This document shows, one piece after another, positions 1,700 through 3,755 of a DNA stretch of 51,662 nt (position 1 is the stretch's first letter; every line of letters starts with the position of its first letter). The stretch is from Escherichia phage aaroes: the sequence record NC_049826.1. The stretch is one strand, 5' to 3'. The position numbers and the translations under genes are program-made. The notes under the pieces were generated by a model. That model had not been told where the DNA came from, ran no database searches, and worked only from the letters and a program-made list of their open reading frames with translations.

Positions 1700-1727
1700 A
1701 ATATCAATATAAATCATCAATTTAATT

Positions 1728-1757
1728 GGGCGAGGCATTTTGCTTTGCCCTTTTTTT
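1728..1757 (+). terminator. intrinsic terminator after phosphoesterase gene
   Basis: Imperfect GC stem (GGGCGAGGCA / TGCTTTGCCC) followed by a 7-T run. Confidence 0.5.
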
Positions 1758-1830
1758 ATTCCTTTTTGTGCGTTCAATGGTTAGGATACAATCAATTAAT
1801 TGTTGACTTTTATTTACAGGAGATCTAATC

Positions 1831-2046
1831 ATGAAAGATTTTTTAAACGCTGCAACTTCCGGCACTGGCGGCGCGTCAATCACTGGCGCGGTAACTGGTC
1901 AAACAACGATTGCAATAGCCAGCTTCGTTTTGATGGCTGCATTTGGTATGTGGGGCGCTTATCTTCGTTGGCGTGATAGTAAGGCGCTACGTGACGCGCT
2001 TGAATGCGGTGATATTAAGAAGGCTATTGAAATCAGGGGTAAATAA
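1831..2046 (+). CDS. holin (possible pinholin)
   Basis: 71 aa, hydrophobic Gly/Ala-rich TM segments and charged C-terminus; AGGAG RBS; stop overlaps endolysin start. Confidence 0.55.
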
Positions 2047-2534
2047 TGAGCATAAAACAAAGAGTGACCGCTGCGGCTTTTGGCGTTGCTCTTGCTCTTA
2101 CTTCTCCATTACTGGAGGAAATAGAAGGAGTAAAATATAAGCCGTACAAAGATATTGCTGGAATATGGACGGTTTGCGCCGGAATAACTGGACCTGACGT
2201 AATACCAGGTAAGACGTACACACAGAGAGAGTGCGATGCGCTACTGGCAAAGCATATCAAGATCGCAAAGGATGAAGTTGATAAGCGCGTGAAGGTTGAT
2301 ATTCCTGATACAATGCGCGCGGCAATGTATTCATTCACGTATAATGCTGGCACTGGTGCTTTTAGAAATTCAACCATGCTTAAGCTGATTAATAAAGGCC
2401 GTTACATGGAAGCGTGCGATCAGTTATGGCGATGGACCAAATACACCAATCCAAAAACAGGAAAGAAAGAAACGTCTAAAGGACTGCGCAACCGCCGCGC
2501 CGTGGAATTTAAATATTGCATTAAGGATCTGTAA
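2046..2534 (+). CDS. endolysin, T4-lysozyme-like (GH24), possible SAR type
   Basis: E...D...T catalytic-triad-like stretch ([25 protein letters not shown]); weakly hydrophobic Ala/Gly-rich N-terminus typical of signal-anchor-release lysins. Confidence 0.7.
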
Positions 2535-2536
2535 TT

Positions 2537-2935
2537 ATGAGAAAGTTATCAGTAATCGCGATCGCTGTTATCTTGTCTGGATGTTCAAGCGTTACGCCAC
2601 TGACCGGATTGATAGGAAGCAAGCCTGAGATAACAGCACAGGCAGGAGCGGAGAACGTAAAACAGACCGTCGGACTGACAGCAAAACAGGACGCCAGCAC
2701 AAAACAGGATACGACAATTAAAGAGTCGAAAGTTGACACTGTTGATACTTCAAACAAAAAGGAGATCAAAACGTCAACCATTCAGGCCAATACCATCAAG
2801 GCTGATAAAATCCAGGTCGTGCAGGGTGAGCAAGGCAAGTGGTACGATCCTATAATATATTGCGCGGCAATTTTTAGTGGTCTTTTGTCAATGCTTTACT
2901 TTTCCTGCCGAAAGGGCAACAAAAAGGAGGCTTAA
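2537..2935 (+). CDS. unimolecular spanin (lipoprotein with C-terminal TM domain)
   Basis: Lipobox LSGC after a signal sequence plus C-terminal hydrophobic helix; position right after the endolysin, as in T1 gp11. Confidence 0.55.
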   Translation: MRKLSVIAIAVILSGCSSVTPLTGLIGSKPEITAQAGAENVKQTVGLTAKQDASTKQDTTIKESKVDTVDTSNKKEIKTSTIQANTIKADKIQVVQGEQGKWYDPIIYCAAIFSGLLSMLYFSCRKGNKKEA

Positions 2936-2948
2936 CGCTTCCTTTGTT

Positions 2949-3164
2949 TTATGCATCAGCCCACATATAACTTTCGTTTGTGAGTTTTGCATATTCGCGA
3001 ACTTCAAATTCGCACTTATCACCGTACATCTCCGCGACTTTCTTCTCGTTCGCTACCGCTGATTCCTCGGTCCATCCATCAGCTTTGCTGTAAAGAGTTG
3101 GAATCTCACTGCTAGTACCGTTGGAGTGATTATAAACGCGAACTACTAAAAATTTGTTAGCCAT
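2949..3164 (-). CDS. hypothetical early protein (71 aa)
   Basis: ORF behind a cassette copy; RBS GAAGGAAAACATC before ATG. Confidence 0.5.
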   Translation of the reverse strand: MANKFLVVRVYNHSNGTSSEIPTLYSKADGWTEESAVANEKKVAEMYGDKCEFEVREYAKLTNESYMWADA

Positions 3165-3247
3165 GATGTTTTCCTTCTGGTCGTTTCGTCTCGATGAAAC
3201 AAATATACCCGATACGAGATCGGGTGTTTTAACAAAAAGTGCTATTC
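3165..3247 (-). promoter_or_regulatory. early promoter-leader cassette copy
   Basis: Read on minus strand: GAATAGCACTTTTTGTTAAAAC, hairpin CCCGAT-loop-ATCGGG, TATATT, leader CATCGAGACGAAACGA; TAG of the upstream ORF lies in the core. Confidence 0.55.
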
Positions 3248-3436
3248 AATACGCTTTACAGTAACCAACAAAACTCCGTCCTCATCACACAAATTATGCT
3301 CTGATATATCAAACGCTCGCATGTCAGAATGAATGAGCGTTAACATTGCGTGCATGAAGTCGTCATGTGAGATTGAACTTACGGCGCAGAACTTCAATAT
3401 TTTGTCTATTAGCATTTGACGTAAACAATTCTTCAT
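3242..3436 (-). CDS. hypothetical protein (64 aa)
   Basis: GGAGA RBS before ATG at 3436; overlaps the 3' end of the upstream ORF by 74 nt in another frame; stop TAG is inside the repeat core. Confidence 0.4.
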   Translation of the reverse strand: MKNCLRQMLIDKILKFCAVSSISHDDFMHAMLTLIHSDMRAFDISEHNLCDEDGVLLVTVKRIE

Positions 3437-3755
3437 CGCTCATTTCTCCGATCCGTAAAACATCCCTTACCCATTCGTTTTGCATACCTTCCAGGCTGTA
3501 AAGTTCAAACGAGAAAGGGCGATTTGCTGATCCTTTCTTACACCAGAACTTTCCACCAACTCCATCAAGATAACCAGCGGTCATCATTCTTGCGCAAAAT
3601 TCTTTTGAAACGGCAGTTGCAAACATCCTCGGCGTAAATCCTGCGGCCCTTGCGAGCCGCTCACATTCTCTGTGCTGAAAGATAAATTTTGCTATATGTT
3701 GACGTGTAAACCATTCGAATGACTCACACCAGCGATACAGATCCAGAAGAAACAT
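3363..3755 (-). CDS. hypothetical protein (130 aa)
   Basis: ATG 2 nt after the stop of the P-loop gene (translational coupling). Confidence 0.5.
   Translation of the reverse strand: MFLLDLYRWCESFEWFTRQHIAKFIFQHRECERLARAAGFTPRMFATAVSKEFCARMMTAGYLDGVGGKFWCKKGSANRPFSFELYSLEGMQNEWVRDVLRIGEMSDEELFTSNANRQNIEVLRRKFNLT

Follow-up and report, generated by a model that had tools for sequence, protein, structure and literature searches.

Analysis of positions 1831-2935 of the window (the whole stretch of DNA that was analysed, 51,662 nucleotides) revealed three tandem, tightly packed genes on the plus strand, encoding a holin, a GH24 lysozyme and a lipoprotein spanin. A lysis cassette had been proposed for this interval from an earlier reading of the sequence, and the three open reading frames were found at exactly these coordinates, all on the plus strand. 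The start of the endolysin gene shares one nucleotide with the holin stop codon, and the gap between the endolysin and spanin genes is two nucleotides. Shine-Dalgarno-like motifs are present 7-9 nucleotides 5' of the starts: GGAG for the holin, GGGG for the endolysin and AAGGA for the spanin. Features identified at the locus are listed in Table 1.

Table 1. Genes, protein segments and signals of the lysis cassette. Coordinates are those of the window; KD, Kyte-Doolittle hydropathy.
Feature	Coordinates	Strand	Remarks
Terminator-like hairpin and T-run, 3' of the DNA repair exonuclease gene	1728..1750	+	upstream boundary of the cassette
Holin, T1 gp13 family, predicted class II (pinholin-like)	1831..2046	+	71 aa
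Putative SAR-like TMD1, holin residues 4-22	1840..1896	+	weakly hydrophobic, Gly/Ala/Ser/Thr-rich, KD 0.68
TMD2, holin residues 27-45	1909..1965	+	strongly hydrophobic, KD 1.86-1.94
Endolysin, GH24 / T4-type lysozyme, R21 (class II SAR) type	2046..2534	+	162 aa
Putative signal-anchor-release (SAR) domain, endolysin residues 7-23	2064..2114	+	uncharged, weakly hydrophobic
Catalytic triad E27 / D36 / T42 (E-X8-D-X5-T)	2124..2171	+	T4-type lysozyme motif
Unimolecular spanin, T1 gp11 family	2537..2935	+	132 aa
Lipoprotein signal peptide MRKLSVIAIAVILSG and Cys16 (putative lipidation site)	2537..2584	+	lipobox LSGC, +2 residue Ser17
C-terminal transmembrane helix, spanin residues 105-124	2849..2908	+	KD 1.87-1.99, uncharged, followed by RKGNKKEA (basic tail)
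Terminator-like hairpin over the spanin stop codon	2923..2945	+	downstream boundary; faces a convergent minus-strand gene

The upstream hairpin has a stem of 10 pairs (6 GC) followed by TTTTTTTATT. The downstream hairpin has a stem of nine pairs followed by GTTTTAT, and it is kept in two of the related loci (L004 and L005) even where the flanks have diverged. The holin gene directly follows the DNA repair exonuclease gene, no gene being found in between (positions 1700-1830). A promoter scan returned two promoter-like matches against 4.3 expected from shuffles and no promoter is claimed; the plus-strand match at 1803-1832 covers the holin start codon and hence cannot drive the holin. Minus-strand open reading frames within the cassette (e.g. 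2033-2377 and 2521-2781) come only from the mechanical list of reading frames and have no other support. Two minus-strand genes lie downstream and are convergent to the cassette: one at 2949-3164 (-), encoding a 71-aa hypothetical protein that matched no Pfam or NCBIfam family, and one at 3363-3755 (-), encoding a 130-aa protein named 'YdbL' in the annotation of phage damhaus, for which no Pfam match was found. Scans of the whole 51.7 kb window found no tRNA and no Rfam family reaching the gathering threshold.

Comparison with other phages revealed matches to the cassette in 128 phage records; in 122 of them the match extends over 80% or more of the query. This recurrence rules out chance. In Escherichia phage damhaus (Hanrivervirus, Drexlerviridae, Tempevirinae) the cassette corresponds to gp34-gp36, and 1,301 bp align at 99.9% nucleotide identity. 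The cassette proteins translated from the damhaus locus (L001) are identical to those of the window, with essentially no difference within the cassette, and damhaus and the first 25 kb of the window show about 96% identity across 90% of the length. Judged by sequence, the window is a T1-like E. coli phage of Hanrivervirus (Drexlerviridae). The RefSeq annotation of damhaus names the three genes holin, endolysin and Rz-like spanin. Elsewhere the third gene goes by 'u-spanin', as in the BASEL phages JakobBernoulli and KarlJaspers, or by 'putative unimolecular spanin'. The cassette was also seen in the Drexlerviridae loci fetched for comparison (L001 and L003-L017; L013 ends before the holin). According to a 2026 survey, 508 of 522 Drexlerviridae carry the exonuclease-holin-endolysin-spanin module (PMC13164509). 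Twenty of the matching records are named 'Campylobacter phage', with Campylobacter jejuni as host; this is unexpected, and the records may be mislabelled or contaminated.

Comparison with phage T1 revealed the same gene order, with 59%, 65% and 46% identity between T1 gp13, gp12 and gp11 and the holin, endolysin and spanin of the window, respectively. The holin (71 aa) and the endolysin (162 aa) have the same length in both phages, the T1 spanin has 133 residues against 132 in the window, and the lipobox LSGC is identical. Both cassettes lie downstream of a DNA repair exonuclease gene and are flanked by terminators. Terminators are annotated in T1 at the position equivalent to the downstream hairpin of the window and after the exonuclease gene (gene 16), but in T1 genes 15 and 14 separate the latter from the holin. 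These two genes, an HNH endonuclease gene and the gene for the small gp14 (L003 4029-4760), are found between exonuclease and holin in T1 only of the two phages. T1 gp14 matches Pfam DUF7244 (SH3-like) at 8.8e-29 and has a homologue in L009 and L010 as well; a tblastn search of the whole window with gp14 found nothing. The absence of gp14 from the window fits the survey cited above, in which the SH3 gene occurs in only 188 of 522 Drexlerviridae (PMC13164509).

Analysis of the endolysin revealed a match to Pfam PF00959 (Phage_lysozyme) that spans profile positions 2-125 of 125 and scores 130.6 bits (cut-off 22.3; E 5.5e-38), and a match to PHROG 7 (4e-56). Together with the presence of E27-X8-D36-X5-T42, the Pfam match confirmed the T4-lysozyme-like catalytic stretch that had been read from the sequence. 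When the endolysin is aligned with R21 of phage 21, with the lysin of T1 and with three further Drexlerviridae lysins, the three catalytic residues are invariant. Among solved structures, the best relative found by phmmer is R21 (PDB 3HDE; E 5.7e-42, residues 3-159). Next come E. coli RrrD (4ZPU) and then 3HDF, a shorter R21 chain of 140 residues, for which the alignment starts at residue 25 of the query. Identity over the catalytic domain is 51% to R21 of the phage 21 record OL657228.1, where the R21 gene is annotated 'SAR endolysin glycosyl hydrolase'. The two enzymes share the E-D-T triad, the four cysteine positions and a SAR-type N-terminal segment. A single-sequence AlphaFold2 model of the endolysin reached a mean pLDDT of 58, with residues 1-48 below 50, and was too poor for comparison with 3HDE. 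In one IMG/VR contig (L018 2603-3184) the N-terminal ~45 residues of the endolysin are duplicated in tandem, which is either an assembly artefact or real.

Residues 7-23 of the endolysin are 17 uncharged residues between K4/R6 and E24/E25, and no other uncharged run of such length occurs at the N-terminus. Their hydrophobicity is marginal, as is typical of SAR domains by definition. The segment has a mean KD of 1.84, and 53% of its residues are Gly, Ala, Ser or Thr; it is the peptide that the original prediction had singled out as a weakly hydrophobic, Ala/Gly-rich N-terminus, and the composition agrees with that description. The R21 SAR domain has a KD of 2.1-2.3 and 63% of these four residues, so that the segment of the window endolysin is somewhat shorter and weaker; the Hessa sum is 2.26 in the window and 0.15 in R21, again with the window the weaker. 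Cysteine occurs in the endolysin only at positions 44, 63, 124 and 158 and is not found in the SAR segment, unlike in the disulfide-caged P1 Lyz type. The character of the segment is kept in T1, in TLS-type and Rtp-type relatives and in every Drexlerviridae relative fetched. The alignment with 3HDE starts at residue 3 of the endolysin and hence includes the N-terminal SAR segment; relative to R21, six residues are missing from the linker that precedes the catalytic glutamic acid.

With just 17 uncharged residues, proline included, the hydrophobic stretch might belong to a canonical cytoplasmic lysozyme, in which the N-terminal helix would be part of the fold and the enzyme would leave the cell through large holin holes. 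We consider this extremely improbable, since soluble GH24 enzymes such as T4 lysozyme have no uncharged run of 14 residues or more, and since R21, the closest characterised relative, is a SAR enzyme. Moreover, a related class II SAR endolysin from Drexlerviridae, carrying E26/D35/T41, was reported to cause lysis that is azide (SecA)-sensitive and so Sec-dependent (bioRxiv 10.64898/2026.09.09.750462), which also argues against a cytoplasmic enzyme.

A second reading takes the N-terminus as a cleavable Sec signal peptide, which would leave a soluble periplasmic enzyme under some other control. The hydrophobic core is short and the small residues at A15-L16-A17 resemble an AXA site, yet R21 has AXA-like motifs too and is described as uncleaved (PMC6139136). 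Precedent for cleavage comes from T4 RI, where, according to the title of PMC8385771, a presumed SAR domain proved cleavable, and SignalP 6.0 identified the N-terminal segment of the 57_3Lys endolysin (57_3Lys preprint). Against these points, the full-length chain 3HDE includes the SAR domain of R21, to which the N-terminal segment of the window endolysin aligns, and the segment is conserved across subfamilies together with the adjoining SPLLEEIEG motif. A constitutive lysozyme in the periplasm would also kill the host too early. Overall, cleavage of this kind appears very unlikely.

The proposal of a likely SAR endolysin is supported by the homology to R21 (51%, with the 3HDE alignment spanning the SAR segment). 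Our analysis supports the assignment of the enzyme to the R21-like (class II) SAR type, and its behaviour at the membrane would be that of R21 and the relatives. The stretch is nevertheless short, contains Pro21 and is weaker than that of R21, and its AXA-like motifs may permit cleavage by signal peptidase.

The holin matched PHROG 2877 'holin' (E 1.2e-35) over positions 1-71 of 71, and its gene lies directly upstream of the endolysin gene. No family in Pfam or NCBIfam was matched above threshold. DUF3262, with 19.8 bits against a cut-off of 27, was rejected, as this score probably reflects membrane-helix composition. On sequence grounds the holin is a member of the T1 gp13 family. Residues 4-45 form one uncharged run of 42 residues that includes both putative transmembrane segments, and the charged C-terminal tail after TMD2 contains 8 basic and 5 acidic residues (net +3). 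In TLS-type homologues glutamic acid occurs at the position of Q24 (TGE), which suggests a turn between the two segments of the holin.

Comparison of the holin with S21 of phage 21 revealed two 71-aa proteins with the same hydropathy pattern of a weak TMD1 and a strong TMD2, which are not homologous. The mean KD of TMD1 is 0.68 in the holin and 0.64 in S21, and that of TMD2 is 1.86-1.94 and 1.72-2.02, respectively; the S21 sequence used as reference was checked against the phage 21 record and agrees with it at 100% identity. No alignment between the holin and S21 was returned by BLASTP at E <= 100, and the holin is therefore placed outside the S21 family, as at most a functional analogue. S21 has a dual-start methionine, whereas no second start for an antiholin was found in the window holin, in which the only start is Met1 and the next methionine is residue 35. 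The TLS-type holins (L012 and L014-L017) begin with M1-RDFLL-M7, a possible dual start (antiholin/holin) that PMC11447400 also notes.

From the SAR endolysin, the original prediction had concluded that the 71-aa holin is a pinholin. This was supported, as a prediction. T1-type holins are predicted as pinholins in the literature (PMC4559738, PMC11447400, PMC6139136), and the S21-like hydropathy of the window holin points in the same direction. The step from one protein to the other is not strict, since SAR endolysins also pair with other holins: phage N4 has a SAR endolysin with a holin system, as stated in the title of bioRxiv 10.1101/2025.11.12.688109. The holin also lacks detectable similarity to S21. 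The pinholin label is plausible as a prediction from topology, in that the hydropathy profile mirrors that of S21. Pinholins of the S21 type have two transmembrane segments (N-in, C-in), the first of which is weakly hydrophobic and able to leave the membrane, and form holes of ~2 nm, too small for a folded endolysin from the cytoplasm; the agreement with S21 is one of hydropathy, which by itself says nothing on insertion or release.

The holin might instead not be a pinholin, having either one stable transmembrane helix (N-out, C-in) or large holes, and would then trigger the SAR endolysin by collapse of the membrane potential. The absence of S21 similarity is compatible with such a holin, as is the note in the T1 GenBank record that its holin 'contains single transmembrane domain'. 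The hydrophobicity of residues 4-22 is very low (KD 0.68, Hessa sum 7.4), but the hydropathy is close to that of S21, in which TMD1 is just as weak. SAR endolysins are known with non-pinholin holins, according to the title cited above (10.1101/2025.11.12.688109), and both endolysin types occur with u-spanins (PMC6139136). On the other hand, the uncharged run of 42 residues could accommodate two helices separated by a conserved TG(Q/E) turn, and several papers, some of them from the Texas A&M Center for Phage Technology, class T1-type holins as class II pinholins. We regard a holin other than a pinholin as rather unlikely, and a pinholin is taken as the preferred reading below.

The spanin matched PHROG 1804 'Rz-like spanin' (2.2e-49) and T1 gp11, the prototype of the u-spanins (46% identity, E 8e-37). 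By the Lol rule, lipoproteins with a residue other than aspartic acid at position +2 are sorted to the outer membrane. In the spanin this residue is serine and not aspartic acid, and outer-membrane sorting is therefore implied; Cys16 and Ser17 are invariant among six spanin homologues. The C-terminal helix keeps its hydrophobic character across homologues and not its sequence, and the sequence of the T1 helix differs from that of the window. Cysteine is found only at positions 16, 109 and 124, so that the periplasmic stretch of 88 residues (17-104) is cysteine-free. Sub-threshold matches of the spanin to NCBIfam spanin2_3 (23.6 bits against 80), TraV, RcsF and PHROG 'Cor' were rejected, as they reflect likeness of lipoprotein signal peptides.

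The third gene had been described as encoding a lipoprotein with a C-terminal transmembrane helix, and this description agrees with the LSGC lipobox with Cys16 as the predicted site of lipidation and with the hydrophobic residues 105-124. Hydropathy analysis of all three proteins, as had been suggested, gave the weak TMD1 and strong TMD2 of the holin, residues 7-23 of the endolysin and the C-terminal transmembrane segment of the spanin. A six-frame scan of positions 1700-3300 revealed no second lipobox preceded by a signal peptide besides that of the spanin, and hence no embedded or overlapping Rz1-like gene. Homology to gp11 and the absence of an embedded second lipobox reading frame bear out the view of this protein as a u-spanin like T1 gp11 rather than one half of an Rz/Rz1 pair. 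In this respect the window differs from phage 21, which has a two-component, embedded Rz/Rz1 spanin in place of a single protein.

Consistent with this assignment, the features by which Kongari et al. recognised u-spanins, which include the absence of periplasmic cysteine (PMC6139136), are found in the window spanin. For T1 gp11 itself, the same study showed lipid modification and the ability to complement a lambda RzRz1 defect. With two exceptions, the T1gp11-family u-spanins were reported to sit in pinholin / SAR-endolysin cassettes, u-spanins in general being found with both endolysin types (PMC6139136).

Some variation was observed among the spanins of the relatives. In L005 and L008 the first ~97 residues are nearly the same as in the window, and the helix is different and four residues shorter. 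Against these two loci, DNA identity drops from about 2826 to 2915 and returns at the terminator hairpin, so that the helix behaves as a swappable module. Close relatives also differ in the sequence 3' of the terminator. In two TLS-like contigs (L011 and L017) the spanin has a longer, different signal peptide with lipobox IVAC (MKWLKLLYPFAVIIFACFIVAC), and the periplasmic domain is otherwise the same.

Taken together, the locus is very probably a T1-like late lysis cassette that acts through a pinholin, a SAR endolysin and a u-spanin. This study established the order of the genes, their homology, the catalytic residues and the hydropathy profiles, together with the lipobox and the lack of a second spanin gene. 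The model of R21 and T1 gp11, together with the literature on relatives, leads us to predict the export of the endolysin, its tethering and release, the size of the hole, the lipidation of the spanin and the fusion step. The endolysin would be exported by the host Sec system, and its uncleaved N-terminal segment (residues 7-23) would hold it inactive on the inner membrane. The 71-aa holin would build up in the inner membrane and depolarise it at a programmed time. Upon depolarisation the SAR segment would exit the bilayer and the endolysin would refold, allowing E27, D36 and T42 to cut the peptidoglycan. The lipid on Cys16 would anchor the spanin in the outer membrane, and the C-terminal helix would hold its other end in the inner membrane; once the wall is gone, the spanin would disrupt the outer membrane, probably by membrane fusion. 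Similar cassettes have been described in the literature: phage Stevie was reported to have a 'predicted (class-II) pinholin', an R21-like SAR lysozyme and a unimolecular spanin (PMC4319613), and the same pinholin / SAR endolysin / u-spanin description was given for TLS and T1, explicitly as predictions (PMC11447400).

It is conceivable that T1-type cassettes form a mechanistically distinct sub-class, although the sequence data do not indicate this and we consider it quite unlikely. The SAR segment of the window endolysin directly abuts the catalytic glutamic acid (four residues, LL-EEIE), whereas the linker from the SAR segment to the catalytic glutamic acid is six residues longer in R21. The very weak first segment of the non-S21 holin may never insert, in which case the holin may have a constitutive, 'activated' topology with a single transmembrane segment. 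If such a sub-class exists, the timing of lysis would be set otherwise than in the S21/R21 model.

The cassette is already known, being annotated in near-identical genomes and published for T1-like phages. SAR and pinholin assignments in the T1 family rest mostly on prediction and on homology to R21. For the T1-like phages, the cassette found here would represent an ordinary textbook route of lysis, the significance of which lies mainly in correct annotation.
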